Shown one piece after another: positions 32,982 to 48,828 of a DNA stretch of 64,000 nt. The position numbers and the translations under genes are program-made. Each line of letters starts with the position of its first letter. Positions within the stretch are counted from its first letter, which is position 1. The stretch lies in NCBI GenBank assembly GCA_964600755.1, contig CAZRKQ010000050.1, forward strand, positions 4,926-68,925. Reading direction: 5' to 3'. The notes beneath the pieces were generated by a model. It saw only the letters and a program-made list of their open reading frames with translations. It was not told the DNA's origin and searched no databases. This stretch comes from an uncultured Thiotrichaceae bacterium (lineage in GTDB: Bacteria > Pseudomonadota > Gammaproteobacteria > SZUA-229).

Positions 32982-33566
32982 CTAGTCGTCCTCTTTATTG
33001 TATTTCAATGCTGCCCACACTGTTCTGACATCCACATGTTCATGATGAATCAGCAGCGTAATTGCTATTTCTTCTAAAGCAGCCACTGCTGAAAATACGG
33101 CAGCTACCCTGAAAGGCCAGTCGAGCCATCCTGCAAAAAGTAATATATAACCAACAAAGGTCACCACAACAGCCACTTTAACAGTCCAGGTGTGATAACT
33201 GGTGATGGTGTTGAACTTGATGAGCCCTACGATGACAGGTGATGTAAAACTGATTACAATCACAACAAATGAGAGTAGTTCTTCAACAACAATCTCGGGC
33301 CAGAGTATCCATGCGCAAACAGCCATGGTGGTATAGATGGTGAAATCACCCCAGCTATCGAGGCGTGATCCCAATGCTGTTATCTGATTCAGCATGCGTG
33401 CAAGGAAACCATCCAGCACATCTGTAAAACCTGAAAACATCAGGCCAGCAAGAAACCAGACAGGTTTCTGGGTAAATGCAAAATAGAATAAAACCGGCGC
33501 CATCAGAATGCGTATAAAACTGACAAAATTCGGCAGGTTATAGATTTCTCGATTGGCTAAGTTCAT
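32982..33566 (-). CDS. CDP-alcohol phosphatidyltransferase family protein
   Basis: 194 aa, membrane protein. D-G-x2-A-R...G...D...D-type motif (DVLDGFLARML...GSRLDSWGD). Confidence 0.8.
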   Translation of the reverse strand: MNLANREIYNLPNFVSFIRILMAPVLFYFAFTQKPVWFLAGLMFSGFTDVLDGFLARMLNQITALGSRLDSWGDFTIYTTMAVCAWILWPEIVVEELLSFVVIVISFTSPVIVGLIKFNTITSYHTWTVKVAVVVTFVGYILLFAGWLDWPFRVAAVFSAVAALEEIAITLLIHHEHVDVRTVWAALKYNKEDD

Positions 33567-33605
33567 AATACTAAATTAAGATCTTGAATTATTTACCAAT
33601 AATAA

Positions 33606-34091
33606 CTAATAAGGCTTTTTACGTATACCCAGTTTATAGAAGATGTAGGACAGCAATAGCTCTGAAATAACAAACGCACATACGAGAATGATTATTGACT
33701 CCATATTGAGTTCAAATACATCCCTTAACATGATGGCCGGAAATAGCGACTCCGGAACCTGGTCAAGTAATGGCGCCATACTGCTTGGCGCCATTCCCAG
33801 GCGGCGCTTGATAAAACTGGAGAAAATATCTCCTGCAACCACATATAAAGCGACCAGTATGCCTGTTACTGCTGGGTAGCCAAGTAAAACAGCACCAACA
33901 GAGGTGAATATAAGGGCACCTGCAATGCCACGCCAGGTTTTTGATTTACCGAATAACGGATTGTCGTCAGCCAGCCGGCGACAAAAATCAACAGGCAAAT
34001 TCAGCCTGTTTTTCATCAGCGCGCGCAATACGACTGGTGCTCCATTTGCAATTATAATAAGCAACAGAAGATGTAATAAATTTATAGACAT
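33606..34091 (-). CDS. CarS-like (CDP-archaeol synthase / DUF46 family) integral-membrane cytidylyltransferase
   Basis: 161 aa with 4-5 TM segments. GKSKTWRG and the rest of the layout resemble the CarS/CdsA-related CTP-transferase family. It sits immediately upstream of the CDP-alcohol phosphatidyltransferase gene on the same strand. Confidence 0.5.
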   Translation of the reverse strand: MSINLLHLLLLIIIANGAPVVLRALMKNRLNLPVDFCRRLADDNPLFGKSKTWRGIAGALIFTSVGAVLLGYPAVTGILVALYVVAGDIFSSFIKRRLGMAPSSMAPLLDQVPESLFPAIMLRDVFELNMESIIILVCAFVISELLLSYIFYKLGIRKKPY

Positions 34092-34163
34092 GGCATATAC
34101 AGTTTATAATTACCTGTATCTAGTTTCTTGTAATATTTTACAGATAATGATTCACAACAAACA

Positions 34164-34916
34164 ATGGAAAGCAACACCCTCAAAGTTTTAACGTACAACA
34201 TACATAAAGGATTCAGTTCTACTAATCGGCATTTTGTACTCCATGGCATAAAAGAGTCCATACGCGAAGTTGATGCTGACCTGGTTCTATTACAGGAAAT
34301 TCACGGCGAACGGGATATCTCCAAAAACAGGTTTGATGACTGGCCCAGTAATAATCAATTCGAATTTCTTGCTGATGAAGTCTGGCACCACCACGCCTAT
34401 GCCAAGAATGCAATCTATAAGTCAGGTCATCATGGCAACGCAATACTCAGTAAATATCCACTCATCGAATGGGAAAATATTGATGTGTCACTTATGCCGT
34501 CACACAGCCGCAGTCTTCTGCATGGCACGATTGAAATAACACAAACACGGCAACATATACACATTATCTGTGTACACCTTGGTCTGTTTGGCATAGAGCG
34601 AAAACGGCAACTTGCCTCGCTTGTCAGCAGAATAGACTCTCATGTGCCTCATGATGCCCCCCTGATCATCGCAGGCGATTTTAATGACTGGTTAGGCAGG
34701 GCTGAAAAGTATTTTACCCACGACCTGGAAGTTCACGAGGTATTTAAAATGTCTACTGGCAGGTATGCCCGGTCGTTTCCAGCCTGGCAGCCGATGTTGT
34801 CGATGGACCGGATTTATAGCCGCGGTCTCGGCCTGGTCAATTGCGAGCGCATGCATGGCGATCCATGGAGAAAGATGTCTGACCATGTTCCTTTAATGGC
34901 CGAGTTTCAATTATAA
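34164..34916 (+). CDS. Endonuclease/exonuclease/phosphatase (EEP) family protein
   Basis: 250 aa. LKVLTYNIHKG...LVLLQEI...GDFND...SDHVPL. All EEP catalytic motifs are present. Confidence 0.85.
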   Translation: MESNTLKVLTYNIHKGFSSTNRHFVLHGIKESIREVDADLVLLQEIHGERDISKNRFDDWPSNNQFEFLADEVWHHHAYAKNAIYKSGHHGNAILSKYPLIEWENIDVSLMPSHSRSLLHGTIEITQTRQHIHIICVHLGLFGIERKRQLASLVSRIDSHVPHDAPLIIAGDFNDWLGRAEKYFTHDLEVHEVFKMSTGRYARSFPAWQPMLSMDRIYSRGLGLVNCERMHGDPWRKMSDHVPLMAEFQL

Positions 34917-35061: not shown

Positions 35062-35448
35062 ATGATATCTGTTCAAAAATTTATAGCTATTCTCACGTCA
35101 GTCGCACTTATGAGCCTGTCTTTCACCAGTACTCAGGCTGCCCTGGTAAGCAACGACCTGGTTATAAATCATGTGCAACATAATAGCGCTAAAACGGAAT
35201 TAATACAGACAATAAACCGTGATGATATTAAACAACAACTGTTAAACATGGGCGTCAATCCAGAGGATATTACAAGCCGCATCGATTTGATGACGCATGA
35301 AGAGATAGCGCAACTGAATCAGCAAATTGACGAACTACCGGCTGGTGGTGATGTGTTAGGTGTTATTCTTATAATATTTATTGTATTTGTTATTACGGAT
35401 GTTATTGGCGCAACAGATATATTCCCGTTTATCAAGCCTGTGAACTGA
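35062..35448 (+). CDS. PA2779-family small protein (signal peptide + C-terminal TM)
   Basis: 128 aa. Signal peptide, helical middle region, C-terminal hydrophobic segment (VLGVILIIFIVFVITDVIGA). Immediately followed by a PA2778-type peptidase gene. Confidence 0.5.
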   Translation: MISVQKFIAILTSVALMSLSFTSTQAALVSNDLVINHVQHNSAKTELIQTINRDDIKQQLLNMGVNPEDITSRIDLMTHEEIAQLNQQIDELPAGGDVLGVILIIFIVFVITDVIGATDIFPFIKPVN

Positions 35449-35461
35449 TACCTGATAATGA

Positions 35462-36448
35462 ATGGCCATTAACATAACATGGCTAAGGCTTACTGCCTGT
35501 CTGCTACTCGCCTGCCTGCTTTATATGCAGGGCTGCTCGACCGTGCATAAAAGCAGGCAGACTCTTCCTGATGATGTTCCACCCGCAGTCGAACTGCCAC
35601 ACACGCCGTTTTATCCACAAAGCAAGCATCAATGCGGTCCGGCTGCGCTTGCAACCGTGCTACAGTCTCAACAGGTAGATGTAACACCGGAAACTCTGTC
35701 ATCACAGCTGTATATACCTGGACGCAAAGGCAGCTTGCAAATCGAGATGGCAGTAACGGCCAGACGTTATGGTATGCTGCCTTATCCACTTGCACCACGG
35801 CTCTCAGACTTATTGGTCGAGATCGCTGCCGGCAATCCTGTGCTTGTGCTGCAAAATCTCGGCTTCGAACGGTGGCCTCAATGGCACTATGCTGTTGTTG
35901 TCGGCTATGACATAGCAAACAACGAGCTAATACTGCGCTCCGGCACAACGAAACGCTGGGTAACATCTTTTGAAGCGTTTAACAACACGTGGAACCGGGC
36001 AGATAACTGGGCCCTGGTAATCATGCCAGCGGGTGAGATACCGGTGACAGCCAGTATCTCTACATATCTAAAAACAGCTTATGCATTTGAAGAAACCGGT
36101 TTAACTCGACATGCACTTGATGCTTACCGCGCTGCAACAAGTGTATGGCCCGAGCATAGCTCAGCGTGGCTGGCACTTGGTAACATGTTATATATAGCCG
36201 GCAACAGTGATGAAGCTGTATCTGCACTTTTCAAGGCTTCAAGGCTGAGTCCCGCTACGGTAAGCGTATGGAATAATCTTGCGTATGCACTGTATAAGAA
36301 TGGTTGCGCGCAGCAATCATTTAGCTCTTTACAATGCGCCTACCATCTATCACCCGATGATGACAATATTCGCGATTCCGAACAGGAAATAAAGAATATG
36401 GCTATGCAGCCCCAGACGGGAAACTGTCCAGAAATTGCTTGTAATTAA
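35462..36448 (+). CDS. PA2778-family C39-like cysteine peptidase lipoprotein with C-terminal TPR repeats
   Basis: 328 aa. Lipobox LLYMQGC. Cys motif QCGPAALATVL of C39/papain-like peptidases, with a downstream His (WHYAVVVGYD). C-terminal TPR-like repeats (AWLALGNMLYIAGNSDEAVSALFKA...). Confidence 0.65.
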   Translation: MAINITWLRLTACLLLACLLYMQGCSTVHKSRQTLPDDVPPAVELPHTPFYPQSKHQCGPAALATVLQSQQVDVTPETLSSQLYIPGRKGSLQIEMAVTARRYGMLPYPLAPRLSDLLVEIAAGNPVLVLQNLGFERWPQWHYAVVVGYDIANNELILRSGTTKRWVTSFEAFNNTWNRADNWALVIMPAGEIPVTASISTYLKTAYAFEETGLTRHALDAYRAATSVWPEHSSAWLALGNMLYIAGNSDEAVSALFKASRLSPATVSVWNNLAYALYKNGCAQQSFSSLQCAYHLSPDDDNIRDSEQEIKNMAMQPQTGNCPEIACN

Positions 36449-36596: not shown

Positions 36597-36833
36597 CTAG
36601 CCTGAAGGTTTTAACCTGTATATTTCGTAATCAATGCCATACTCGGTCGTGCCTATGTAGGCACCAATGAACCCGTCGTAATCCCAATTGATTTCTCCGG
36701 GTTTCTCCATCGTTCCTGCCACACGTTCACATAACGACCTGTAACAGGCTTCCATTGCCAATGTTGTTGACACAAAGAAAGACTCGTGTAACTCGGGATC
36801 ACCATGTAATGGCCACACCTGAATTACGTACAT
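36597..36833 (-). CDS. Small hypothetical protein (78 aa)
   Basis: Strong RBS (GGAGG 7 nt upstream of the ATG). No recognisable family. Confidence 0.45.
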   Translation of the reverse strand: MYVIQVWPLHGDPELHESFFVSTTLAMEACYRSLCERVAGTMEKPGEINWDYDGFIGAYIGTTEYGIDYEIYRLKPSG

Positions 36834-36943: not shown

Positions 36944-36980
36944 GGAACTGGGGACTGGGGACTGGGGACTGGGGACTGGA
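36944..36980. repeat. Heptanucleotide tandem repeat (GGGGACT)x5, preceded by TACTAGG
   Basis: Read directly: ctaggaactggggactggggactggggactggggactgga. Same family as the repeats at 43301-43337 and 48023-48052. Confidence 0.85.
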
Positions 36981-37004: not shown

Positions 37005-37793
37005 TCAATCCGGTTTTTTATTTTCGCTGAGAAATCCGCTTAGTCCACGCCTGGAGTCCTGTGATAACCACTCACGCAAATACTCTACTTCCTCGGTATT
37101 TGCTATTCCTTCAAGTGATTTATCGCCTGACCTGACCGCTCGATAGGCCTGTTCCAGAGTTCGGTAGCGATCACCTTTAATACCTGACCTGCGTAAGCCG
37201 ACTGCATTCAAGCGGTAATGATGTGCCTTTTCGCCGGCGACCATGGTAAATGGCATAACATCTTTTCTTACCGCTACGAAGCCGGCAATCATGGCATTTC
37301 GGCCTATTCGGCAAAACTGATGAACTGCAACACTGCCGCCAAACACAGCATTATTGCCGATCTCCACATGACCGCCGATTGCGGTATTAATTGTAAGAAT
37401 TACCCCATCACCAACATTGCAGTCGTGACCGATATGTGTGTTAACCATGAGGAAACCATTCGAGCCCAGTCGGGTAGCTTTAAGAGTCGATGTTGAACGA
37501 TGGATAGTAACGTTTTCACGCAGAGTATTGGCATCACCGATTTCAACCCAGGTTTCGGTGGATCGATCAAAAGAAACATCCTGCGGCAGGTCACCAATAA
37601 CTGCGTGAGCATGTACGCGGTTTTCAGCACCCATACGTACATAATCATAAATCACAACATGGGGCCCAATTACAGTATTTGAACCAATCTCGACGTGATC
37701 ATGAATAATCGAAAAGGGCCCCACTGTAACACCTTCGGCGAGCACTGCATTCGGGGAGACAATGGCAGTAGGATGTATACTTGGTTCAGGCAT
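37005..37793 (-). CDS. Second LpxA paralog (acyl-ACP--UDP-N-acetylglucosamine O-acyltransferase-like, left-handed beta-helix)
   Basis: ORF 37005..37976. The first 61 codons have no similarity, so the probable start is MPEPSIHPTAIV (37793). Hexapeptide repeats plus the LpxA catalytic region (NTHIGHDCNVGD...VHQFCRIG) and the LpxA-specific C-terminal helical domain. Distinct from the canonical lpxA at 48058-48828. Confidence 0.75.
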   Translation of the reverse strand: MPEPSIHPTAIVSPNAVLAEGVTVGPFSIIHDHVEIGSNTVIGPHVVIYDYVRMGAENRVHAHAVIGDLPQDVSFDRSTETWVEIGDANTLRENVTIHRSTSTLKATRLGSNGFLMVNTHIGHDCNVGDGVILTINTAIGGHVEIGNNAVFGGSVAVHQFCRIGRNAMIAGFVAVRKDVMPFTMVAGEKAHHYRLNAVGLRRSGIKGDRYRTLEQAYRAVRSGDKSLEGIANTEEVEYLREWLSQDSRRGLSGFLSENKKPD

Positions 37794-37953
37794 AGTGTTT
37801 ATCAGGTTATTGGCAATATGTACGATATTAGCGGACAAATTCCACATCTTTTGAGTGTGAAAAAACCACCTGAAAATGAAGGAATTATTGGGCACTAATC
37901 TTGTCATATTTTTGGTAGAATCCCTACTAGTTTCAGACACACACGAGGTTGAT

Positions 37954-38331
37954 ATGTCAGATATACAGTTCAACAATCAGTTAACCGATCAAATCAATGT
38001 ATCGCCGGAAGCAGCAAAGCAATTACTGGCTTTGACTGAAAATGAAGAAGGCGTTAATGGTGTTCGCATATTCGTTTCAGGTGGCGGTTGCGGTGGTATG
38101 AGCTATGGCATGACTTTCGTAGATCAGCCAAATGAATATGACTGCACACTGGATAAAGATGGCCTGAAGGTATATGTCGATGCTGTTGCGCTAAGTTATC
38201 TTGCCGGTGTCGAAGTCGATTACCAGACACAGGGCGCCAACGCCAGCTTCGTATTCAAGAATGTATTTGCCAATACTGGCGGATCAGGAACCTGCGGCGC
38301 TTGCGGGGCAGCAGGCGGCGGTTGCGGCTAG
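37954..38331 (+). CDS. HesB/IscA-family (A-type carrier-like) protein with Gly/Cys-rich C-terminal tail
   Basis: ORF 37876..38331; start at MSDIQF. IFVSGGGCGGMSYGMTFVD matches the IscA core. The usual C-terminal CGCGESF is replaced by GTCGACGAAGGGCG. Confidence 0.6.
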   Translation: MSDIQFNNQLTDQINVSPEAAKQLLALTENEEGVNGVRIFVSGGGCGGMSYGMTFVDQPNEYDCTLDKDGLKVYVDAVALSYLAGVEVDYQTQGANASFVFKNVFANTGGSGTCGACGAAGGGCG

Positions 38332-38553
38332 CCAATAACAAGCTTCAGATGGTTGCAGGCAGCGGTTGAAACCAGCTTTGCACATCCTGTGCACGAGCAC
38401 AGCAAAGCGCATTACTGGTTTTAGCTTGCTTCCGTACCAGCTGAAATCTCTAACGATACCTTTCATGGTATTCAAGCGATTTCAAAACGTCTCCTATTAA
38501 TCTCTCAACCCAATAGCTACCGTATAGCCCCTTACCTGACCGCAGCAAAGCAG

Positions 38554-39720
38554 ATGGGGCTGCAGGTACTGATTGGATCCCGTGGTGAGCATTCACTCAC
38601 GACCGAAGTCAACCAGGGACTGCACATCGATCTGGATGACCATGATTCAGCCCTTGCCAGCATACTCGAAGAAGCCCGGCTAAGACCCTTTAGCGGCATC
38701 ATCGGCAGTGATGACAGTACTGTCGAGCTGGCCGCGCATGCAGCCAACAGGCTCGGCCTGCCCCATAATCCGCCTGAAGCTGCGCGCTCTACACGCAGAA
38801 AAGACCGCGCCCGGGCACAACTAATGCTGGCGGGCTGCCCTGTGCCAATCCACTGCCTGGTCGATATCAGCAAACCACTTGATAAGCAGATGTCCGGCCT
38901 ACCCTGGCCATGCGTTCTCAAACCAGTCAACATGTCAGCGAGTCGTGGTGTTATACGGGCAAATAATGAACATGAGTTTATTGATGCCTGCGAACGCCTG
39001 CGAAACATCATTTCCGAATCGATCGACGAATTTGAACGCTGCCATGTTCTTGTCGAAGACTACATAGACGGTATCGAAGTCGCCTATGAAGGCTACCTCC
39101 ACGCAGGCCAGTTGCACACACTCGCGGTGTTCGATAAACCGGATCCACTGACCGGTCCTTTCTTCGAAGAAACCATTTATGTCACTCCATCACAGCTCGA
39201 AGCCGACACCCTCAGGATTATCAAGCAGCGGGTACAGCAGGCATGCACAGCTTTTGGACTGACAACCGGTCCAATCCATGCCGAATTACGTGTCAACGCC
39301 AGGGATGCATGGATACTGGAAGTTGCATCACGTACGATTGGCGGCGAATGCGCACGCACACTGGATAGCGGCACAAATAAAAGCCTTGAACAATTGACCG
39401 TGTCACTCGCAATTGGTGAGCCAGTGCAACCGGCAGGCATAACTCAAAGCCGCGGTGTAATGATGATTCCGATCAGGCAGGCGGGACTACTCAGGCGTGT
39501 AGAAGGCATCCTGGCAGCCCAGAAAGTACCTCATATCGAAACAATTGATATTGTAATCAGTGAGGGTCATGAGCTGATACCTCTACCGGAAGGCAATCAG
39601 TACCTCGGGTTTATCTTTGCGAAAGCCGATTCGCCAGATATGGTGACCGCCGCACTTAGAATGGCACATGAAAAGCTGAATTTTGTCACCGCGCCCGTGT
39701 TCAAGTTGGCTTCGGTCTGA
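38554..39720 (+). CDS. ATP-grasp domain enzyme (carboxylate-amine ligase-like); N-terminus probably extends upstream to ~38470 using a non-ATG start, or the gene is disrupted
   Basis: 388 aa from the first ATG. The ATP-grasp core is HVLVEDYIDGIEVAYEG...IHAELRV. The same frame is open back to 38425 and encodes ...ISKRLLLISQPNSYRIAPYLTAAKQ-MGLQVLIG. This looks like the canonical N-terminal Rossmann-like pre-ATP-grasp strand, but it contains no ATG/GTG/TTG. Confidence 0.65.
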   Translation: MGLQVLIGSRGEHSLTTEVNQGLHIDLDDHDSALASILEEARLRPFSGIIGSDDSTVELAAHAANRLGLPHNPPEAARSTRRKDRARAQLMLAGCPVPIHCLVDISKPLDKQMSGLPWPCVLKPVNMSASRGVIRANNEHEFIDACERLRNIISESIDEFERCHVLVEDYIDGIEVAYEGYLHAGQLHTLAVFDKPDPLTGPFFEETIYVTPSQLEADTLRIIKQRVQQACTAFGLTTGPIHAELRVNARDAWILEVASRTIGGECARTLDSGTNKSLEQLTVSLAIGEPVQPAGITQSRGVMMIPIRQAGLLRRVEGILAAQKVPHIETIDIVISEGHELIPLPEGNQYLGFIFAKADSPDMVTAALRMAHEKLNFVTAPVFKLASV

Positions 39721-39885
39721 TTAGTATTGGAATTAACGCAAAGAGAATATTCAGTTTTTGTAGGAGCGGCATTAGCCGCGAACATCATCTGATCGTTCCT
39801 AACTGAGCATTTGATTTCGCCTTGCTGGCGAGTTACTTTTCTTTGCTTGTCCAAAGAAAAGTAACCAAAAGAAAAGACACGGTAC

Positions 39886-41187
39886 GAGTCAAGGACATAG
39901 GTAACAAAAGAGTCCAAGGACATGGGTTACACTTTCACCGTGATATAGGGCACGGTCTTACCCTTAATACTTCTTTCATCAAATCGTCCGAGTGTGACCG
40001 GTCCAAAATATACCTGCCAGATCCCCGCATCGACTTCTTCCAGTCCAACATGTTCACCTTTCAACAGGTGTGACACATAGACCAGCTTGTTATGCCAGTA
40101 CACCACGCCATTGCTGCTGACTTTGCGCACCTCAAAATAATTCGGATAGTGCAGCTCGGGTAGATGTTCCGGGTAAGGTCGGGGTGACGGTGCGTAGTGT
40201 GAGGCGGGCGTCTGCTGCTCAAGCGCCTCATGCGGACGCTGTTCATTGTACTCTGCACGAAAGGCATCGAAGCGTTGTTGCTGGGCTTTCATGTTCGCCG
40301 ACGGTGGCCGGGTCGCCGCTTGCTTAAGCGTGCGGTGCATGCGCTCATGCCGTCCATTCTGTTGCGGCTTGCCCGGCTCAATGCGCTCGGGCAGGATCCC
40401 CAGCCTGATCCACCACAGTGACAGTTGCGACAGGCCACCGCGGGCCGTGCTGGCAAAGGGTACGCCGTTGTCAGAACGGATGCGCTCAGGCAAGCCGTAT
40501 TGTCGGAACAGTCGGGTGAAGGTGGCCCGGGTGTCTTTCAGCCGCGGCCCTTTGAGGGCGTCGCAACCACACAGGTAGCGACTTTGATGGTCCATGACCG
40601 TGAGTGGATAACACCACTGGCCGTTACCCAGTTTGAACTGCCCTTTGTAGTCGACACTCCACACCCCATTGACCTGCTTCACCGGGGCAAACGGTTGTGG
40701 ATACGGCGTCACCCGGCGCCGGCGCCGGCGCGGGTGCACCAGGCCCGCACGGGACAGAATGTTGTAAATCGTGCTCTTTGAGGGAATGGCTTCATCGGGA
40801 TAACGCTGTGCCAGCAGCACCTGCAGCTTCTTGGCACCGGGCTGTGTCTGAAACTGCTGGCGCAGTTCGATGATGGCTTGCTGAATGCGGTAAGGGGTTC
40901 GCGTTGGACACGCGGTGGGTGTACGGCGTTGTTCATTCAGCCCGTCCAGCCCTTGTTGCTGAAAACGGTGTATCCACTTGTAACCCGTTTTTCGGCTGAC
41001 GCCATAGTGTGCACACAGCTCGGTCACGCTCGCTACCTGGCGCAGGTAGTCGGCAATAAACAGGACTTTTTGTTGCATCGGCTTCACCTCTTTCCAGGGC
41101 ATAGGCACCTCCTCTTGTCGGTGCCAACAGATTACTCAATCTGTTACCTATGTCCTTGGACTAATGTGTTACCTATGTTTATAAACC
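39886..41187 (-). mobile_element. IS481-family insertion sequence (about 1.3 kb) with duplicated terminal inverted repeats, GC-rich relative to its surroundings
   Basis: Terminal IRs: GTCAAGGACATAGGTAACA / GTCCAAGGACATGGGTTACA at 39888-39931, and TGTTACCTATGTCCTTGGAC / TGTTACCTATGTTT at 41143-41182. A single DDE transposase ORF lies inside. The coding DNA is visibly more GC-rich than flanking genes. Confidence 0.8.
39927..41108 (-). CDS. IS481-family DDE transposase (N-terminal HTH + integrase catalytic core)
   Basis: 393 aa. HTH (ELCAHYGVSRKTGYKWIHRF), DDE integrase core (WSVDYKG...VMDHQSRY..., SDNGVPF, ...QNGRHER), and a poly-Arg PRRRRRR linker. Confidence 0.85.
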   Translation of the reverse strand: MPMPWKEVKPMQQKVLFIADYLRQVASVTELCAHYGVSRKTGYKWIHRFQQQGLDGLNEQRRTPTACPTRTPYRIQQAIIELRQQFQTQPGAKKLQVLLAQRYPDEAIPSKSTIYNILSRAGLVHPRRRRRRVTPYPQPFAPVKQVNGVWSVDYKGQFKLGNGQWCYPLTVMDHQSRYLCGCDALKGPRLKDTRATFTRLFRQYGLPERIRSDNGVPFASTARGGLSQLSLWWIRLGILPERIEPGKPQQNGRHERMHRTLKQAATRPPSANMKAQQQRFDAFRAEYNEQRPHEALEQQTPASHYAPSPRPYPEHLPELHYPNYFEVRKVSSNGVVYWHNKLVYVSHLLKGEHVGLEEVDAGIWQVYFGPVTLGRFDERSIKGKTVPYITVKV

Positions 41188-41412
41188 GTACCGGGCGCAT
41201 TTTTTGGGTTACGTTTTTTGGGCGTTCAAAAAAGGTAACTCGCTCCAGCAGGAGCGAAACTAATGCTTAGTTACACGTGATAATAAATCGATAGATATTA
41301 TAATCAGTATCACAGCGTAATTTTCACGGTTAAAAGTGAGATTAAGTTAAGTTCGCGACTAATGCCACTCCTACAAAAGCTGTCCACGGCAGCCCCAACG
41401 TCTAAAAGATTA

Positions 41413-41444
41413 CTTTGCGCCCTTTGCGTCTCCGCGCCTTTGCG
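41413..41444. repeat. REP-like GC-rich repeat, copy C (single arm): CTTTGCGCCCTTTGCGTCTCCGCGCCTTTGCG
   Basis: Variant of the CGCAGAGG family in which CTCTGCG becomes CTTTGCG. Located just outside the right outer inverted repeat that flanks the IS481 element. Confidence 0.6.
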
Positions 41445-41471
41445 TTAAAAACCTGGTATCTACGCGGAAGC

Positions 41472-41759
41472 TTATTTCTTGCCGCCGCCGGCCTGGAAAC
41501 CTGCCGGCGCCTGGCCATAGTCCCCTTCGCCAAAGAAAAAGCCAGCCATGTGTTTTTCGATGAGCTCGATATTTTTCGGATCAGCCGTATTCAGGCCGTT
41601 TTCATTAATAATGGTTGTCAGGCGTTCTAGCCATTGTTGCCAGCCTTCCTTTGATACATTTTCGTAGATGCGGATACCTAAAGAACCCGGATGAGGCGGT
41701 TGCTCCAGCCCCTCGGCTTCTGTTTTGAGCACCACGCATTGAACCATTCTCGTCATCAC
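41472..41759 (-). CDS. yggX: Fe(II)-trafficking / oxidative-damage protection protein YggX
   Basis: 95 aa. Collinear with E. coli YggX (VQCVVLKTEAEGLE..PHPGSLGIRIYENVSKEGWQQW...LINE..LN). Confidence 0.8.
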   Translation of the reverse strand: MMTRMVQCVVLKTEAEGLEQPPHPGSLGIRIYENVSKEGWQQWLERLTTIINENGLNTADPKNIELIEKHMAGFFFGEGDYGQAPAGFQAGGGKK

Positions 41760-41770
41760 AACCTCAACAT

Positions 41771-42838
41771 TTACAGATTTGATTTCTCTTCGTATTTCTT
41801 CAGCAATACGCCTTCGTCACCGCAGCAGCTGGCCGGGCACTTCTTAACCTGATGCATTTCCTCAGCCTGGCTGTTTAGATAGAACTCGACCGGGCGGTTT
41901 TCCTTGGCACAATCACAACCTTTGTCATTATACACATAAACCTGCCGCAAGCCCGCACGCCTGCCCTGTTCTGCCGCGGCAAACAACACTTCGTCTGGTG
42001 TTGGCGGTGTATCCATTAATTTGTATGCCGGGAAAAATTTCGTGATATGCCAGGGGCTGTCTGCACCCAGGTTTTCACGTACCCAGCTCGCGATGGCGAA
42101 ATGTTCGTCAGGATCGTCGTTCTTTCCGGGAATGATATTTGTTCTTGTTTCAACATGGACGCCCAGATCATGAGCCGTCTTGATCGAATGCAGTACTTGC
42201 TCGACCGTGGCCGGGCGGCAGATCTCCCGGTAAAAATCATCGCGCATGCTCTTGATATCTGAGCACAGCACGTCCAGATGCGGCGCCACCAGCTGCAGTG
42301 CTTCATCAGTAACAAAACTGTTGGACACATACACCGTGTAAAGACCTGCTTCATGCGCCAGCTCGCACACATCCATGACATATTCTAGCCATACCGCTGG
42401 CTCAGAATAGGTAAAGGCAATACCCTGTACACCGGCCCGCTGGGCGGTTTCTACAAGGCTTTCGGGTGTCACCCAGGCTTCTTTTGACTGACCACGGGCG
42501 AGCTCGTCCAGCGCTTTCACACCCCAGGAAATATCAAGGTTGTGGCAACCGCCACAGCGAAAACTACAGCCATAGCTGCCAACCGACATCACCTGTGTAC
42601 CGGGCCGGTAATGCCTGATCGGTTTATCTTCAATCGGGTCAATATCGATCGATGAGAGGATGCCGTACGACAGGTTATACAGGGTACCGTTACGGTTGAC
42701 ATGCGCCTGGCAGAAGCCACGCTGGCCGTGGCCGATTTTGCAGCGCCACAGGCACAGGTTGCACCGTGTCGTGCCGTTAGCCAGCTTTTCCTGCAGCCTG
42801 GTCTCGACCAGCTGGTAATCCTGTAAATTTTTTGTCAT
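41771..42838 (-). CDS. AmmeMemoRadiSam-system-type radical SAM enzyme (PflA-like activase fold)
   Basis: 355 aa. N-terminal Cys cluster RCNLCLWRCKIGHGQRGFCQAH matches the C.LCP..C.L..G.rGfC..R signature of that family. Radical SAM CxxxCxxC at GCSFRCGGCHN. Confidence 0.65.
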   Translation of the reverse strand: MTKNLQDYQLVETRLQEKLANGTTRCNLCLWRCKIGHGQRGFCQAHVNRNGTLYNLSYGILSSIDIDPIEDKPIRHYRPGTQVMSVGSYGCSFRCGGCHNLDISWGVKALDELARGQSKEAWVTPESLVETAQRAGVQGIAFTYSEPAVWLEYVMDVCELAHEAGLYTVYVSNSFVTDEALQLVAPHLDVLCSDIKSMRDDFYREICRPATVEQVLHSIKTAHDLGVHVETRTNIIPGKNDDPDEHFAIASWVRENLGADSPWHITKFFPAYKLMDTPPTPDEVLFAAAEQGRRAGLRQVYVYNDKGCDCAKENRPVEFYLNSQAEEMHQVKKCPASCCGDEGVLLKKYEEKSNL

Positions 42839-42844
42839 AACTTT

Positions 42845-43183
42845 TTAGAGTGTAATCACCTGGTCTGGCATATTACCGGATAATGCCCCGTACAGATTCG
42901 GGAAACACCCTATTGTAGCGCCTTCGACCAGCATATCATCAATTTCCCGTTCATAGGCACACTGGTCGCAGGCCATCAATAACATGCCTTTGTCATTCGC
43001 CAGCCTGGCCAGGCGCTCGCCAATGGGATTTCCCTTCTGCAGCACATAGGCATTATCTTCAAAAAAGAACATACCCACGACCTCAACACCGTGTGTATCC
43101 TGCTCCAGCTGAGGAAGAATCATCTTACCGAGCTTGTATGAAACCGAGTGCCCCTGAGTAGAAAAAATATACGCAACCTTCAT
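42845..43183 (-). CDS. DsrE/DsrF/TusD-like family small protein
   Basis: 112 aa. MKVAYIFSTQGHS...VVGMFFFEDNAYV...LLMACDQCA pattern of the DsrE fold, with a conserved Cys. Confidence 0.55.
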   Translation of the reverse strand: MKVAYIFSTQGHSVSYKLGKMILPQLEQDTHGVEVVGMFFFEDNAYVLQKGNPIGERLARLANDKGMLLMACDQCAYEREIDDMLVEGATIGCFPNLYGALSGNMPDQVITL

Positions 43184-43657: not shown

Positions 43658-46615
43658 CTACAGATTTATAACATCCAGACCCAGGTTCCCTTTCTGTTCA
43701 AGCGTAGCAGCATTAGTAATAATGGCCGTACTTGCTTTATCAGGATGCAGATAGGTTTGTGTTACACGTTTCAAGTCATCGAGTCTCACATTCAAAACGT
43801 TTTGTCTGAATGCCTGCAGTTTGTCCAGAGTACGCCCATGCAATAGATTGTGAAATGCCTGCCTGGCTTCACCCGCTGGTGACCCGGGTTTATCGATACT
43901 ACTGATAACACCAAGTATGGCTTCTTCAACCATTCTCCATTCATGCTTGCCGGTCAGCATCCAGTCAATTGCACGGTCGAAATCGTCAAGTGTCTCATCC
44001 AGTCTTGGGTCACGGTAGGAGAAAAAGCGAAAAGCAGCAATATTCGTGTCATGGCCTGCGCCACCACCATAGGCACCACCCTTCTCTCGAATGGCAGTAT
44101 GCAGGAAACCATTTCTGAGGAATCCGCCAAGTACAGACAAAGGAGCCGCATCGGGATGGTCCATCGGCACCGATTTGTAGGCACGCGCGCAAAAATTCAC
44201 CTGGGTATTCGTTACCCACATCTGTTTTACATTTTCATCAATGGTACTGGTACTGAATGACTTGAATGACTGGCCAGACTTTTCAGCTGTCCATATCCGC
44301 TCAAAACCATTTACCAGGTCATCAAGCTTTTCTTCTTCACCGATAATCATAAACTTTCTTGGAGCAGCGATAAGTTTCTGGTGAATATCACTAAACTTGC
44401 TGGCAAAGTCAGCAACTGCACCTTCCTTGTTAGCATCATCAACGGCTTTGAGAATACGTATACCTTCAAGGCCATTAAAGCGGTGCCCGAGGGAGGCAAC
44501 CGGGCACATGCCGCTTGAAGCTGCAGACATCGCCAGCGTATGCCCGCTACCAGTGACGCTTTGTTCGCGTCGTGCGCGTCGTTGCGAAATGATTTCCCGG
44601 ATGCGATCATGCTCATCAAAGCGAACATTTTGAATAGTCTCATGCATTAACTCAGACAGACTTTCATTGTTGCGTTCGAGGGCCTTGCCGGTAAATACAT
44701 AATAGCCTCGTGTTTGCTGCACATCATCACTGTGTCCGCGGATGCTGGAATGACCGCTTACCCCGCCACTGACGCTTGACTGCCAGCCCTGCACCTGCAG
44801 GTAATCCCTGTCTCCCACACCAAGCTCGGTCAAACAGCTCGAAAAAAATGGCAGCATATCGAGTTGATCCGGATCGAACGCAGGAAGATCAAGCACCATC
44901 TCATGATACACAAGGCCATTGGTACCTTGCGCATACAGCGTAGATTCTGTATTGGAAATCTGCCGTGCAATTGCTGAAGGTATTTTCATCTCGGGCGGCA
45001 CATCCTCAAGCCCGACTTTAGGCAGTACTGCGGGGTCATCTTCCTGCTGCTGGCGTAATGCCAGTTCAGCAGCACGTCTAATAACCTGTGATTTATCATC
45101 ATCCGACATGACCGCCTTCATCTTCTCAAGACGCTCGTGCTCTGCTTCTTCCTTACGCGCACTGAGTGTCGTATCAGGCTTCATTGTGAGGCGAACTCGA
45201 TGCGGATTATCCAGCAATAATTCTCGAACCAGGCGCTTGATATAAGTCTCATCCTTGATCTTTTCACGTAACGATTCGATGACAGGATCAAGGTTAAGCA
45301 ATTGTGACGGATCGCCACGGTGAATAGCCGCTGACAGGCCACTGAGGATCAACTGCAAACCATAAGGATAGCCATCACCGCCTATTTCGCGCTGACTCAG
45401 TTCAAGCTGGTGCAGTACGGCTTCGAGTTGCTCTTGTGCAACTCCATTCTCGGCAACATCCTGCAGGACATCAATAACCAGTTTTTCAAATGCTTCTGCA
45501 TCGCCAGGCTCACTGCCTTCAATGCCACACATGAAGCACATTTCATGGTTCGAATCTTCCAGCCCACACAGCGGTGAGGGTGCTGAACCCAGTTTAGTTG
45601 TTTCCAGTGCCTTGCGCAGAGGCGATGAACTGTTCTCCAGTAACACATGTGACAACAAATTCGACTTCATGACTTCATCAAGTGAAATACTGGGGCCGAG
45701 CAGCCAGCCAAGTACATGGTGAGTCTTGTGGTCCTCAGTCACACCTTCGACAACGTCAAATGCATATACATCCTCGATAACGACTGGCTTATCGAGGCGT
45801 TGTTCATCATCAACATGAATATTAACGTCAAGTTTGTCGAAATAGCTCAGGGCTTTTTCTTCGAACTGCTTCTGCTGTTCGTATGCCGGGATATCACCAA
45901 ATGTCATAAATACAGCATTACTCGGATGATAATGCGTTTGATAAAATGACTTGAGCTGCTGGTAAGACAGATCAGGAATATTTACCGGCTCACCACCACT
46001 GTTGTAATGATAAGTAGTCGTTGGATAAAGGTGCTCACTCAATGTTTGCCATAGCACGCTAACTGGTGAACTCATCGCGCCTTTCATTTCGTTGAACACG
46101 ACACCTTTAAATTCGAGTTCGCTTTGCGGGTTGTCTGCTTCCTTGAATTCAACGCGATGCCCTTCCTGTAAAAAATCAAGTTCATCCAGCCTGGAAAAAA
46201 ATGCCGCATCCAGATAAACATCCAGTAAATTATTGAAGTCTTTTCTGTTCTGGCTGGAAAACGGGTATGCCGTCCAGTCACTGCTGGTAAATGCATTCAT
46301 GAATGTGTTCAGTGATCGCCTTATCATCATAAAGAACGGATCACGCACAGGGTATTTTTTACTGCCACATAAGGCGGTATGTTCCAGTATATGTGCAACG
46401 CCTGTTGAATCCATGGGTACAGTCCTGAATGCAACGAGAAAAACATTTTCATTGTTATCAGCATCAATATGATAGTGCATGGCACCAGTCTTGATATGCT
46501 GATATTCCTCGATTGTTACATTGAGTGACTCAATGCGTTCGGATCGTATCCATGTAAAGGCCGGGTGTGAATTGCCTTTTACCGTGTTTGGAGTTTCTGC
46601 AACTTGTGTTGTCAT
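43658..46615 (-). CDS. M16-family (insulinase/PreP-like) zinc metalloprotease, about 985 aa
   Basis: Inverted zinc motif HILEHTALCGS (HxxEH) near the N-terminus. Size and domain organisation resemble the presequence-protease-like M16C enzymes. Confidence 0.8.
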   Translation of the reverse strand: MTTQVAETPNTVKGNSHPAFTWIRSERIESLNVTIEEYQHIKTGAMHYHIDADNNENVFLVAFRTVPMDSTGVAHILEHTALCGSKKYPVRDPFFMMIRRSLNTFMNAFTSSDWTAYPFSSQNRKDFNNLLDVYLDAAFFSRLDELDFLQEGHRVEFKEADNPQSELEFKGVVFNEMKGAMSSPVSVLWQTLSEHLYPTTTYHYNSGGEPVNIPDLSYQQLKSFYQTHYHPSNAVFMTFGDIPAYEQQKQFEEKALSYFDKLDVNIHVDDEQRLDKPVVIEDVYAFDVVEGVTEDHKTHHVLGWLLGPSISLDEVMKSNLLSHVLLENSSSPLRKALETTKLGSAPSPLCGLEDSNHEMCFMCGIEGSEPGDAEAFEKLVIDVLQDVAENGVAQEQLEAVLHQLELSQREIGGDGYPYGLQLILSGLSAAIHRGDPSQLLNLDPVIESLREKIKDETYIKRLVRELLLDNPHRVRLTMKPDTTLSARKEEAEHERLEKMKAVMSDDDKSQVIRRAAELALRQQQEDDPAVLPKVGLEDVPPEMKIPSAIARQISNTESTLYAQGTNGLVYHEMVLDLPAFDPDQLDMLPFFSSCLTELGVGDRDYLQVQGWQSSVSGGVSGHSSIRGHSDDVQQTRGYYVFTGKALERNNESLSELMHETIQNVRFDEHDRIREIISQRRARREQSVTGSGHTLAMSAASSGMCPVASLGHRFNGLEGIRILKAVDDANKEGAVADFASKFSDIHQKLIAAPRKFMIIGEEEKLDDLVNGFERIWTAEKSGQSFKSFSTSTIDENVKQMWVTNTQVNFCARAYKSVPMDHPDAAPLSVLGGFLRNGFLHTAIREKGGAYGGGAGHDTNIAAFRFFSYRDPRLDETLDDFDRAIDWMLTGKHEWRMVEEAILGVISSIDKPGSPAGEARQAFHNLLHGRTLDKLQAFRQNVLNVRLDDLKRVTQTYLHPDKASTAIITNAATLEQKGNLGLDVINL

Positions 46616-46616
46616 G

Positions 46617-47288
46617 TTATGTATTTTTTGTGAGTTTGTAGGCTGTTTCTATTAATGTAGTAAGACCACGCTGCTTGAATCTTGGTTCATCCTCAAGGAT
46701 ACTTTTTGCCGCAAGTTTTTCGACTCTGAAATTATCGCGGTAAAGCTCATTGACTTCTTCTTCGGAGACTGAAAATGGAGGCCCATACATTTCATTTTCC
46801 GGGTATGTAAGGGTAATCAACAATGTGCGTGTCCCTGGCTTTTGTAATTCAGTAATTTTGTTTACATACTCGCTGCGCATTTCCTTTGGCAGCGCAATCA
46901 GTGAAGCACGATCAAAAATATCGGTGATGTAGCCGATATTTTCAGCTTGCAGTGTAAAAAAATCACCCAGCAGGATTTCCAGCATGTCGGTTTTATACCT
47001 GACATGACTCTCCATGTTCGATTTGATGAAATTCAGCTGCTGCTCGGCAAAAAACTGTTCAACGGCCAGCTCACTGCACTCAACACCAACCGATTGATAT
47101 CCGCTTTGCTGCAACCACCACAGGTCTTTCGATTTCCCGCACAGTGGAACAAATACCCTCAATTCAGACCGCTTCTCCACCGCAGGTCCCATTTCGCCAT
47201 AATAGTAACCAAGGTAAGGGTTGACGTGATGCTGGTGAAAACCGGTTTCGCCCCTGCTCCAGCGTTCAAGCCAGAAATCTATTTCCAT
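46617..47288 (-). CDS. tpm: Thiopurine S-methyltransferase
   Basis: 223 aa. FWLERW..G..GFHQ..VNP.L ... RVFVPLCGKS.D..WL matches TPMT. Confidence 0.8.
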   Translation of the reverse strand: MEIDFWLERWSRGETGFHQHHVNPYLGYYYGEMGPAVEKRSELRVFVPLCGKSKDLWWLQQSGYQSVGVECSELAVEQFFAEQQLNFIKSNMESHVRYKTDMLEILLGDFFTLQAENIGYITDIFDRASLIALPKEMRSEYVNKITELQKPGTRTLLITLTYPENEMYGPPFSVSEEEVNELYRDNFRVEKLAAKSILEDEPRFKQRGLTTLIETAYKLTKNT

Positions 47289-47297
47289 TTAGGACGG

Positions 47298-47582
47298 TTA
47301 CCCTTCACCCGGTTTCCAGATACCAAAGGCCTCCTGCGAGGGCTGTGGGGGTGCCATATCGGTTTCTACCTGATCCAGAACCTGCCCCATGAATGCAGTC
47401 AGATCATTGAGAAAACCGTGCTTGTCCAGGCCCGGGTTCGTCTGGTGCGCAAGTACATAGCCAATAATGGCGGACAGATACTGCATAGTCATAAGATCAT
47501 CGTCTGCTGAAGCGTCATGTTGTACGAGTACCTCTTTGACGCCTGAAATCAGTTCACCGGATAGTTGAATGCCGCCACTCAT
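47298..47582 (-). CDS. Hypothetical protein (94 aa), co-directional with and immediately upstream of tpm
   Basis: ORF only. No recognisable motifs. Confidence 0.35.
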   Translation of the reverse strand: MSGGIQLSGELISGVKEVLVQHDASADDDLMTMQYLSAIIGYVLAHQTNPGLDKHGFLNDLTAFMGQVLDQVETDMAPPQPSQEAFGIWKPGEG

Positions 47583-47653
47583 ATTGGGATTTTCCTGTCT
47601 GAATAAAAAGTGTAGATTGTACGCTATCTGCCCTAATTTCCAAAAAACAAACC

Positions 47654-47965
47654 ATGTATAAAATATGTGTATTCGTCCCGGAAACTGCCGTCGAACAGGT
47701 AAAACAGGCCATGTTTGCAGCCGGTGCCGGCAAAATTGGTGACTATGACAGCTGCTGCTGGCAAACCTCGGGCCAGGGCCAGTTCAGACCACTGCAAGGC
47801 AGTTCACCCTATCTCGGAAAACAGGATCATGTGGAAACCGTGACAGAATTCAGGGTGGAAATGGTATGTGCTGACGAGTTAATAAAAGTCACAGTAGATG
47901 CCATGAAAAGCAGCCACCCCTACGAAGAGCCTGCCTACGATGTCTGGAAACTGGAAGATTTCTGA
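47654..47965 (+). CDS. Stand-alone PII-like/CutA-fold protein related to the insert domain of NIF3 (YqfO) family proteins
   Basis: 103 aa. ICVFVPE...VKQAMFAAGAGKIGDYDSCCWQT.GQGQFRPL.GS.PYLG......E.RVEMVC...L...V.AMK..HPYEEPAYDVWKLE. Recalled similarity to the NIF3 insert; this is not verifiable here. Confidence 0.45.
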   Translation: MYKICVFVPETAVEQVKQAMFAAGAGKIGDYDSCCWQTSGQGQFRPLQGSSPYLGKQDHVETVTEFRVEMVCADELIKVTVDAMKSSHPYEEPAYDVWKLEDF

Positions 47966-47975
47966 ATTTTTTCAA

Positions 47976-48008
47976 CGCAAAGACGCCAAGGCGCAAAGGA
48001 CGCAAAGA
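47976..48008. repeat. REP-like GC-rich repeat, copy D: CGCAAAGACGCCAAGGCGCAAAGGACGCAAAGA
   Basis: Three CGCAAAG units. Same family as the copies at 946-1045, 2207-2350 and 41413-41444. Confidence 0.6.
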
Positions 48009-48022
48009 ATTTATTTGATTTT

Positions 48023-48052
48023 CCTAGACCCCAGTACCTAGTTCCTAGTACC
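48023..48052. repeat. Heptanucleotide tandem repeat (CCTAGTA variants), immediately downstream of lpxA
   Basis: cctagaccccagtacctagttcctagtacc. Confidence 0.8.
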
Positions 48053-48057
48053 TTGCT

Positions 48058-48828
48058 TCATCGTGTCCAGCCGCGTTCGCTTGTACCCAGAAAATCGATT
48101 ACCTGCTTGACTTCAGGGTGAACGGCCGCAATTTCAGATACACGTTCGAGTTTTTCCTTTAGTGTACCTTTCGACTTGACCAGGATTTTATAGGTCTCCT
48201 GCAGGGCACGGATGGTTTCTGGCTTGAATCCTTTGCGCACCAGGCCTTCCTTGTTAATGCCGCGTGCCTTTGCCCTGTTGCCTGCCACTGTGAAATAAGG
48301 CAGCACGTCCCGGTCCAGAGCCGTTGCAAAACCGGTAAAGCAGTATGAGCCCAGACGTGTGAACTGGTGCACCGCAGTAAAGCCACCAAGAATTGCATAG
48401 TCTTCAACGACTACATGCCCAGCCAGAGTCGCGTTATTGGCAAGAATAATATTGTTGCCGATTATGCAGTCGTGAGCGACATGGACATAAGCCATAAACA
48501 GGTTGTCGTTACCAATTTGCGTAACGCTTCGATCTTCTTCTGTACCACGATGTATGGTGGTACATTCGCGAATGGTATTTCTATCGCCTATAACAAGCCT
48601 TGATTTTTCGCCATGAAACTTCAGATCCTGCGGATCTTCACCGATTGATGCAAACTGGAAAATACGGTTTTCCTCTCCAATTATTGTTGGCCCTTTAATA
48701 ACAACATGCGGGCCGATTACTGTACCGGCCCCGATCTCTACATCTGCACCAACAATACTATATGGCCCTATCTGAACATCACGTGCAATCACAGCAGACT
48801 CATCAATGATTGCGGTTTCGTGTATCAT
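48058..48828 (-). CDS. lpxA: Acyl-ACP--UDP-N-acetylglucosamine O-acyltransferase
   Basis: 256 aa. Canonical position after fabZ. HVAHDCIIG catalytic region. Confidence 0.95.
   Translation of the reverse strand: MIHETAIIDESAVIARDVQIGPYSIVGADVEIGAGTVIGPHVVIKGPTIIGEENRIFQFASIGEDPQDLKFHGEKSRLVIGDRNTIRECTTIHRGTEEDRSVTQIGNDNLFMAYVHVAHDCIIGNNIILANNATLAGHVVVEDYAILGGFTAVHQFTRLGSYCFTGFATALDRDVLPYFTVAGNRAKARGINKEGLVRKGFKPETIRALQETYKILVKSKGTLKEKLERVSEIAAVHPEVKQVIDFLGTSERGWTR

Follow-up and report, generated by a model that had tools for sequence, protein, structure and literature searches.

An ATP-grasp ligase gene in a stretch of 64,000 nucleotides (nt) from an uncultured Thiotrichaceae bacterium (contig CAZRKQ010000050.1; the whole stretch is called the window, and all positions refer to it) probably begins at the rare codon ATT at 38479-38481 (+), giving a product of 413 amino acids (aa; 38479-39720, +). 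A spacer of 147 nt (38332-38478, +) separates it from an upstream gene for a variant HesB/IscA-like A-type carrier (125 aa; 37954-38331, +). The most interesting result of the analysis is that near-cognate starts occur family-wide in a ligase with a tight coupling to a carrier of variant A-type. A third gene, lpxA2 (37005-37793, -), encodes a divergent LpxA-family acyltransferase paralogue of 262 aa and is transcribed away from hesB across an intergenic spacer of 160 bp (37794-37953; sequence read directly). Each of the three genes is real and intact, and nothing points to their working together. The stretch is best described as two independent units, the hesB-ligase operon and lpxA2, and we consider this explanation as a whole, including the ATT start, to be probable.

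Translation start of the ligase gene

For comparison of the ligase, 80 species-level genomic loci (denoted by L numbers) were retrieved, and synteny was counted over 81 loci. Start codons were recorded in the 70 orthologues in which the motif QPxSYRIAPY could be located. The close-clade DNA alignment comprised the eight nearest relatives, which are independent assemblies with 78-89% protein identity. The ratio of non-synonymous to synonymous differences (pN/pS) was computed by the Nei-Gojobori method.

The ligase frame opens at 38425, right after the stop codon TAG at 38422-38424, and holds no in-frame ATG, GTG or TTG between this stop and ATG 38554-38556 (+), the internal codon (Met26) chosen by gene callers and yielding a product of 388 aa. 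Another ATG, at 38465, precedes the ATT by 14 nt and is in a different frame (+1); it opens a short open reading frame (ORF; MVFKRFQNVSY, 38465-38500, +) which is terminated by TAA 38498-38500 and is not conserved. The open frame without a canonical start and the out-of-frame ATG 38465 had been described in an initial annotation of the region, whose coordinates and sequence statements all hold, including that of a conserved N-terminal segment upstream of the internal ATG. This segment, ISKRLLLISQPNSYRIAPYLTAAKQ, can be aligned to the N-terminal ends of homologues starting M-x-x-(K/R)-R-L-L-L.

The canonical start codon is also missing in 8/8 close relatives and in about 34 of the 70 orthologues. 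The codon aligned to 38479 is ATT or ATC in 9/9 close-clade members, and in the alignment of the window with its eight relatives nucleotide conservation starts exactly at this codon, upstream of which the sequences cannot be aligned. For the 24 codons from the ATT to the internal ATG a pN/pS of 0.14 was obtained; the value is 0.17 over the next 80 codons downstream of the internal ATG and 0.81 over the 8 in-frame codons which precede the ATT. Variable columns within the 24 codons numbered 8, 4 and 21 at the first, second and third codon position, respectively. An in-frame stop codon is found one codon upstream of the ATT in L001 and L002 and three codons upstream in L079; therefore, no initiation further upstream is possible in these genomes. 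In nine orthologues (L019, L022, L038, L042, L047, L051, L060, L068 and L072) an ATG occupies the same position as ATT 38479. Locus L087, which has full synteny with the window including lpxA2, carries a ligase ATG one codon from the ATT position. The start was assigned to ATT 38479 because of the onset of conservation, the drop in pN/pS, the upstream stop codons and the canonical starts at the same position in orthologues. In a structure model of the ligase calculated with AlphaFold2 (AF2), residues 4-8 form strand β1 and residues 14-25 helix α1 of the N-terminal domain, and a start at 38554 would remove both.

Several other explanations for the missing canonical start were weighed. If the sequence contained an indel from sequencing or assembly, or if a programmed frameshift took place, translation could start at ATG 38465 and pass into the ligase frame before TAA 38498. 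The preceding ATG in the +1 frame would suit this explanation, but the lack of a canonical start is shared by eight independently assembled relatives and by the further orthologues. Moreover, the out-of-frame ATG is absent or in another frame among the nine close genomes (L005 has none), a conserved slippery heptamer was not found, and proteins can be aligned in the ATT frame with no shift at all. We regard the probability of this explanation as negligible. The initial annotation had offered a rare start codon, a frameshift or a sequencing error; the rare start codon is retained here as ATT 38479, while frameshift and sequencing error were ruled out by the conservation across independent assemblies and the in-frame upstream stops in relatives. 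A pseudogene was rejected as well.

Alternatively, the product of 388 aa could be correct, in which case the 25 codons preceding ATG 38554 would be an untranslated leader. Met26 is nearly invariant and is the start selected by gene callers and by NCBI. However, the 24 upstream codons are under the same purifying selection as the gene body (pN/pS 0.14 vs 0.17) with variation mainly at third positions, they would encode β1 and α1 according to the AF2 model, and they align with the N-termini of ATG-started orthologues, all of which makes the shorter product highly unlikely. A start at a near-cognate codon slightly upstream, i.e., ATT 38470 or ATC 38446, was judged to have a very small chance of being right: both codons are in frame and 3' of TAG 38422, but they are not conserved, the codons upstream of 38479 evolve neutrally, and in L001 the equivalent of ATT 38470 is followed by TGA. 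Some points weigh against ATT 38479 itself. AUC and AUA, which take its place in orthologues, are very weak initiators in Escherichia coli, there is no recognisable Shine-Dalgarno sequence before the ATT, the assignment is a comparative one throughout, and the genomes compared are nearly all metagenome-assembled genomes (MAGs). With these points included, initiation at ATT 38479 is still considered likely.

Start codons across the ligase family

Among the 70 orthologues, the canonical start codons were ATG (13 cases, and 2 further upstream), TTG (11 cases, and 1 further upstream) and GTG (7 cases). In orthologues with no canonical option the codon was ATT in 14, ATC in 9, ATA in 3 and CTG in 8 cases; ATT, ATC or ATA are found at the ligase start in 26/70. 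The start is located 8-11 codons ahead of the QPxSYRIAPY motif in most orthologues. The CTG starts, found in Thiogranum-like genomes, overlap the hesB stop codon as CTGA, precisely where sister genomes carry TTGA, and in two genomes TAA is immediately followed by TTG. The start of hesB, taken as a control, was assigned to ATG in nearly all loci. In the window, hesB has a GAGG Shine-Dalgarno sequence and an ATG, both of which the ligase lacks.

Thousands of relatives came up in a homologue search; among the best 120 clusters (90% identity), more than 60 begin at the internal methionine. These sequences begin MGL... or MQMG..., which is the same truncation as in the call of 388 aa for the window, for which an exact-sequence look-up gave no match. 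From this comparison, the ligase family appears to be routinely annotated 25 residues too short in databases; most public records, including the NCBI annotation of complete MAG chromosomes, would thus describe a protein of 388 aa without its first strand and helix.

Initiation factor 3 (IF3) discriminates against near-cognate start codons in E. coli. Such codons reach about 1-2% of AUG initiation in this species, and the only confirmed AUU starts are those of infC and pcnB (bioRxiv 10.1101/063800). In Enterococcus faecalis, the ATT start of ebpA was likewise hidden by an annotated downstream in-frame ATG (PMC4447247). Few non-canonical starts have been confirmed in bacteria overall. The ligase resembles infC, pcnB and ebpA in having a near-cognate ATT where a canonical start is absent, and low initiation is expected for it as well. 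Unlike in these genes, the trait is family-wide in the ligase: ATT, ATC, ATA or CTG are present in about half of the 70 species and alternate with ATG, TTG and GTG. In contrast to infC, the ligase is unrelated to translation, so that there is no obvious autoregulation via IF3, and its start is a comparative assignment. One family which interchanges AUU, AUC, AUA and CUG with the canonical codons provides a natural experiment on how start codons are selected and on the expression ratios of genes in an operon.

Spacer, RNA structure and expression signals

The region 38332-38500, covering the hesB-ligase spacer and the ligase start, was predicted from the single sequence to form an unusually stable fold (-54 kcal/mol, z = -4.5), in which the ATT start is paired in a hairpin GAAAUC...GAUUUC. 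RNAalifold, applied to the relatives, gave two short, weakly supported stems and no covariation support for a conserved structure, and Rfam contained no match for the spacer. Promoter and terminator scans performed no better than on shuffled sequence, and the lpxA2/hesB spacer is without a convincing promoter consensus.

The near-cognate start, the absent Shine-Dalgarno sequence and, in many lineages, the overlap with or close spacing to the hesB stop codon would make the ligase far scarcer than the carrier. In L087, a hairpin that resembles a terminator and includes a T-run (AAAATCCCCGCACTTGCGGGGATTTTTATTTTT; approximately 5370-5400, on the minus strand as stored) is situated between hesB and the ATG-started ligase gene; this hairpin is an alternative route to lower ligase expression relative to hesB. 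On the 3' side of the window ligase (39710-39850, -), a sub-threshold Rfam match to RT-2 was obtained (21.9 bits vs a gathering threshold of 40, E = 0.046), which is probably due to chance.

The ligase protein

The ligase contains the Pfam domains ATPgrasp_N, ATP-grasp_4 and LAL_C2. The best sequence match in the PDB is the L-amino acid ligase (LAL) BL00235 of Bacillus licheniformis (3vot; 1.3e-34, 24% identity). The AF2 model has a mean predicted local distance difference test (pLDDT) value of 85 and a predicted template modelling (pTM) score of 0.86. When this model was used in Foldseek, 3vot was found with a template modelling (TM) score of 0.82, followed by RizA and BacD. By domain architecture and by fold match to solved LAL structures, the protein belongs to the LAL type. 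BL00235, RizA, BacD/YwfE and the window ligase share an ATP-grasp architecture of three domains, including ATPgrasp_N and LAL_C2. Unlike these enzymes, the family of the window ligase is paired with a HesB-like gene (72/81 loci) and is not part of an antibiotic cluster. Judged by its family, the enzyme would join a carboxylate to an amine via an acyl-phosphate intermediate, most likely yielding a small peptide, and the predicted fold favours free amino acids as substrates over the modification of a protein tail.

Six cysteines (residues 120, 126, 145, 171, 256 and 291) are conserved throughout the subfamily of the ligase; BL00235 has other residues at all six positions. They may be redox-relevant or provide a site for a metal or a cluster.

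The HesB variant

The product of the hesB-like gene is assigned to the domain family by Pfam Fe-S_biosyn (PF01521, 4.5e-17) and TIGR00049 (79.9 vs a cutoff of 58.8). It falls below the cutoffs of all named equivalogs, with scores of 79 vs 117 for ErpA, 68 vs 151 for IscA and 72 vs 136 for SufA. The protein ends in GGSGTCGACGAAGGGCG directly before the stop codon; it carries Cys46, further on Cys114-Gly-Ala-Cys117, and then Cys124 within a Gly-rich C-terminal tail. A-type carriers are defined by the ligand pattern Cys-Xn-Cys-X-Cys (PMC7144353), which the window HesB lacks. The closest solved structure is HI1723 of Haemophilus influenzae, and its alignment requires a gap of one residue in the CGC motif. 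Like ErpA, IscA and SufA (HI1723), the protein has the Fe-S_biosyn fold, a first cysteine in GGGC(G/S)G and the C-terminal strand F-x-F-x-N; unlike them, it carries Cys-Gly-x-Cys-Gly in place of Cys-x-Cys, and then a Gly-rich extension which usually contains one more cysteine.

That the conserved CGC motif is replaced by a Gly/Cys-rich tail had been noted in the initial annotation for the single protein, and the replacement proved to be a trait of the subfamily: CGxCG is present in 71/71 full-length orthologues and CGC in none (0/71). The extra tail cysteine is found in 53/71 orthologues and is absent in 18, the length of the tail varies, and the last residue is Gly or Ala in 61/71. Among cluster representatives at 50% identity, proteins with CxxC tails (CGxC, CSxC, CAGC) score highest, followed by canonical ErpA-like proteins with NPNA..CGCGSSF. 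Of two distant HesB proteins of the CxxC type, P0245 (L091) is paired with yggX and a ligase gene, and P0251 (L090, on a short contig) is not paired. A further protein search for distant members of this type gave only matches of at least 72% identity and so did not widen the sampling. The putative Cys-Gly-x-Cys ligand spacing beside a peptide ligase and yggX represents a variant within the well-studied A-type carrier family.

Gene neighbourhood and possible function of the pair

A hesB gene is located immediately upstream of the ligase gene in 72/81 loci, which span Thiogranum, Thiohalobacter, Thiohalophilus, Methylococcales and sponge symbionts. The gene yggX is convergent beside the ligase gene in 57 loci, and a radical S-adenosylmethionine (SAM) gene is present in 56. 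In the window, these two are yggX (41472-41759, -; NCBIfam NF003817, 104.7 bits vs a cutoff of 74), encoding an Fe2+-trafficking/oxidative-damage protection protein, and a radical SAM enzyme of the AmmeMemoRadiSam type (41771-42838, -; TIGR04337, 235.9 bits vs a cutoff of 220), with a DsrE-like gene following at 42845-43183 (-). The arrangement yggX-hesB-ligase is kept in L091, where HesB identity is down to 52%. A conserved third gene upstream of hesB was not found in the compared loci; the neighbours vary and are housekeeping genes (LysR regulator, leuC, leuB, asd, ABC-F protein). In addition, lpxA2 is next to hesB only in the clade of the window (L001-L007, L079 and L087). The hesB and ligase genes are an old, widely conserved and often translationally coupled pair. 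The term accessory cluster, under which the initial annotation had placed lpxA2, hesB and the ligase gene together, does not describe this situation, as hesB and the ligase gene form a core pair beside yggX and the radical SAM gene, and lpxA2 adjoins them in one clade only.

The unit would be a conserved operon of two genes, the first encoding the CGxC HesB carrier and the second the AUU-started ligase. Because the ligase is constantly linked to the carrier and to yggX, a role in handling of Fe or Fe-S is suggested. Two points weigh against this: gene order is the one basis for the ligase substrate and for the functional link to HesB, and the fold resembles that of free-amino-acid ligases. Literature searches for ATP-grasp enzymes together with HesB returned nothing, and those together with IscA, ErpA or A-type carriers returned nothing relevant. 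Taken further, the CxxC-tailed HesB and the LAL-type ligase could constitute an unrecognised two-component Fe/Fe-S system, widespread in sulfur-oxidising and methanotrophic Gammaproteobacteria. In such a system, selection would keep ligase translation at a trace, IF3-sensitive level by means of near-cognate starts (AUU, AUC, AUA, CUG) and stop/start coupling, and the ligase would make a thiol peptide cofactor of the carrier or modify its Gly/Cys tail. In this complete form the proposal is speculative and rather improbable.

The second of these activities can be considered as an explanation of its own. RimK acts on ribosomal protein S6 and LysX on LysW, and both are ATP-grasp enzymes which modify the C-terminus of their partner. 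By analogy, the ligase might act on HesB itself and add one or more residues to the Gly/Cys-rich tail. The likeness consists of an ATP-grasp gene beside a gene for a small protein with a conserved C-terminal tail. Such a modification would account for a need for only catalytic amounts of ligase, and it would agree with the strict synteny, the frequent stop/start overlap, the conserved tail with its Gly or Ala end and a ligase that, judged by its start codons, is systematically weakly translated. On the other hand, fold and domains match the free-amino-acid ligases BL00235, RizA and BacD and not RimK or LysX. The tail is Gly/Cys-rich rather than acidic and offers no acidic acceptor residues, its last cysteine is missing in 18/71 orthologues and its length is variable. 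The comparison with RimK-S6 and LysX-LysW is an analogy only, and modification of the HesB tail by the ligase is considered unlikely.

In two sponge-symbiont Methylococcales loci, L065 (2251-5493) and L066 (2327-5533), genes similar to gnnA and gnnB together with lpxB are found directly upstream of hesB and the ligase gene. This is a second, independent juxtaposition of genes for GlcN3N-type lipid A with the hesB-ligase pair.

The LpxA paralogue

The lpxA2 gene starts with ATG at 37793 (MPEPSIHPT...), and its product has the same length as its homologues. It contains the Pfam domains Hexapep and Acetyltransf_11 and has the LpxA fold and equivalog assignment (NCBIfam NF003657, 292 bits vs a cutoff of 226; TIGR01852, 264 vs 231). 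A canonical lpxA1 is also present (48058-48828, -; NF003657, 372 bits), with fabZ (48834-49280, -) and lpxD (49301-50314, -) immediately upstream. It is lpxA1 which takes the slot in the lpxD-fabZ-lpxA block, 10 kb from lpxA2, and lpxA2 is divergent to hesB. Identity to E. coli LpxA amounts to approximately 38% for lpxA2 and 52% for lpxA1. The alignment with the E. coli protein bore out the initial annotation, which had described a complete LpxA paralogue with its catalytic His besides the canonical gene: lpxA2 keeps H99, H125, H144, H160, Q161, G173, N198 and R204, and of these H125, H144, H160 and Q161 are invariant across E. coli LpxA, LpxA1 and eight subfamily members. Three positions are substituted in lpxA2, namely K76 to S, E200 to V and R205 to S (E. 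coli numbering), and the same positions are replaced throughout the subfamily (K76 by S/G, E200 by V/I/L, R205 by S/A/G/N). K76, N198, E200, R204 and R205 are the residues contacting UDP-N-acetylglucosamine (UDP-GlcNAc) in E. coli structures; of this set, lpxA2 has kept N198 and R204.

LpxA enzymes using the 3-amino sugar nucleotide UDP-GlcNAc3N occur in Acidithiobacillus ferrooxidans and Leptospira interrogans (3hsq). The lpxA2 product is a left-handed β-helix acyltransferase with a catalytic His like these, and members of its subfamily are located beside genes similar to gnnA and gnnB in 3/6 unrelated genomic contexts. In Candidatus Nitrosacidococcus (L083), the lpxA2-like gene is convergent with lpxB, a DegT aminotransferase gene and a Gfo/Idh/MocA oxidoreductase gene. 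The same types of aminotransferase and oxidoreductase gene are found 2-4 kb from the lpxA2-like gene on a metagenome contig from the European Nucleotide Archive (ENA; L085), and L088 (GCA_966190585.1) has the order lpxC, oxidoreductase gene, fabZ-like gene, lpxA2-like gene. In NCBIfam, the three oxidoreductases match UDP-GlcNAc 3-dehydrogenase best, with scores of 179-219 bits that do not reach its archaeal cutoff. Based on these residues and neighbours, lpxA2 is predicted to be a catalytically intact paralogue which probably acylates UDP-GlcNAc3N or both sugar nucleotides, alongside the housekeeping lpxA1. The UDP-GlcNAc3N idea of the initial annotation gains indirect support from distant members of the subfamily. 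In the 64 kb of the window, tblastn with Nitrosacidococcus proteins detected no gnnA, gnnB or lpxB. Likewise, no gnnA or gnnB was found within 6 kb in the close clade, and no such genes lie nearby in L084 (ENA metagenome contig), L086 (GCA_041589175.1) and L089 (contig from a metagenome of the Joint Genome Institute). Further, lpxA2 scores no better to the GlcNAc3N-specific Leptospira LpxA (3hsq) than to GlcNAc-specific enzymes. The lack of gnnA and gnnB and these scores count against the use of UDP-GlcNAc3N. A further difference from the enzymes of A. ferrooxidans and L. interrogans is that lpxA2 coexists with a canonical lpxA1.

Alternatively, lpxA2 could be an ordinary UDP-GlcNAc O-acyltransferase, distinguished from LpxA1 by nothing but its preference for acyl chains or its regulation, without any GlcN3N pathway. 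Its scores above the LpxA equivalog cutoffs, the retained catalytic residues and 'ruler' residue G173, and the lack of gnnA and gnnB near lpxA2 in the window clade agree with this. Legionella and Francisella are also known to have lpxA and lpxD paralogues whose roles concern the acyl chains. However, K76, E200 and R205 are consistently replaced across the subfamily, and genes for a UDP-GlcNAc 3-dehydrogenase-like protein and an aminotransferase adjoin it in half of the contexts. An ordinary LpxA is accordingly a possibility of some weight, yet not the one we expect. Use of UDP-GlcNAc3N by lpxA2 is plausible, though the evidence for it is indirect, and was rated somewhat above acyl-chain heterogeneity alone; lpxA2 would then mark a likely capacity for GlcN3N-type lipid A in an uncultured lineage.

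In L084 (6001-9050) and L086 (6001-9342), the lpxA2-like gene is situated beside genes for AMMECR1, Memo and a radical SAM protein, i.e., the full AmmeMemoRadiSam trio. The radical SAM gene is the sole member of this trio near lpxA2 in the window.

Probable IS481 insertion

A probable insertion sequence (IS) of the IS481 family adjoins the 3' side of the ligase gene, as had been described initially. Its transposase (39927-41108, -) scores 218 bits in NCBIfam, just below the cutoff of 224. Long, imperfect terminal inverted repeats are present at 39800/39851-39931 and 41142-41222/41273, from which the approximate ends of the element were taken (about 39800-41273, -). In relatives, yggX directly follows the ligase gene with no IS between them. 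The element is a recent insertion into the spacer between the convergent ligase and yggX genes, because homology to relatives is lost at about 39743 and found again from about 41343-41472; no gene was disrupted.

Outside its own repeats, the putative IS481 element is flanked by a 43-nt inverted repeat (beginning CAGTTTTTGTAGGAGCGGCATTAGCCGCGAAC) at 39752-39794 and 41340-41382. A single copy of the 43-nt repeat is present at the equivalent position of L003. The insertion may have taken place within or next to an intergenic element of palindromic type.

Other genes in the window

Downstream of lpxA2, on the same strand, an ORF of 78 aa (orf78; 36597-36833, -) has no match in Pfam or NCBIfam and is conserved in L001, L003, L079 and L087 at 49-74% identity. 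A microsatellite consisting of perfect heptanucleotide repeats, (ACTGGGG) x 4.7, lies between orf78 and the 3' end of lpxA2 (36947-36979). At 35062-36448 (+), a gene for a DUF6627 protein is followed by one for a C39 cysteine peptidase of the PA2778 family with TPR repeats, and this pair is kept in the close clade. Downstream of lpxA1, the place of lpxB is taken by a gene of the thiopurine methyltransferase family and a gene for a PreP-like M16 peptidase (43658-48057). The region 32982-34916 contains genes for a CDP-alcohol phosphatidyltransferase, a CarS-like protein and a protein of the endonuclease/exonuclease/phosphatase family; this lipid-related trio is syntenic in L087. The CarS-like protein matches the CDP-archaeol synthase family with 76 bits, below the cutoff, which is an unusual match in a bacterium.

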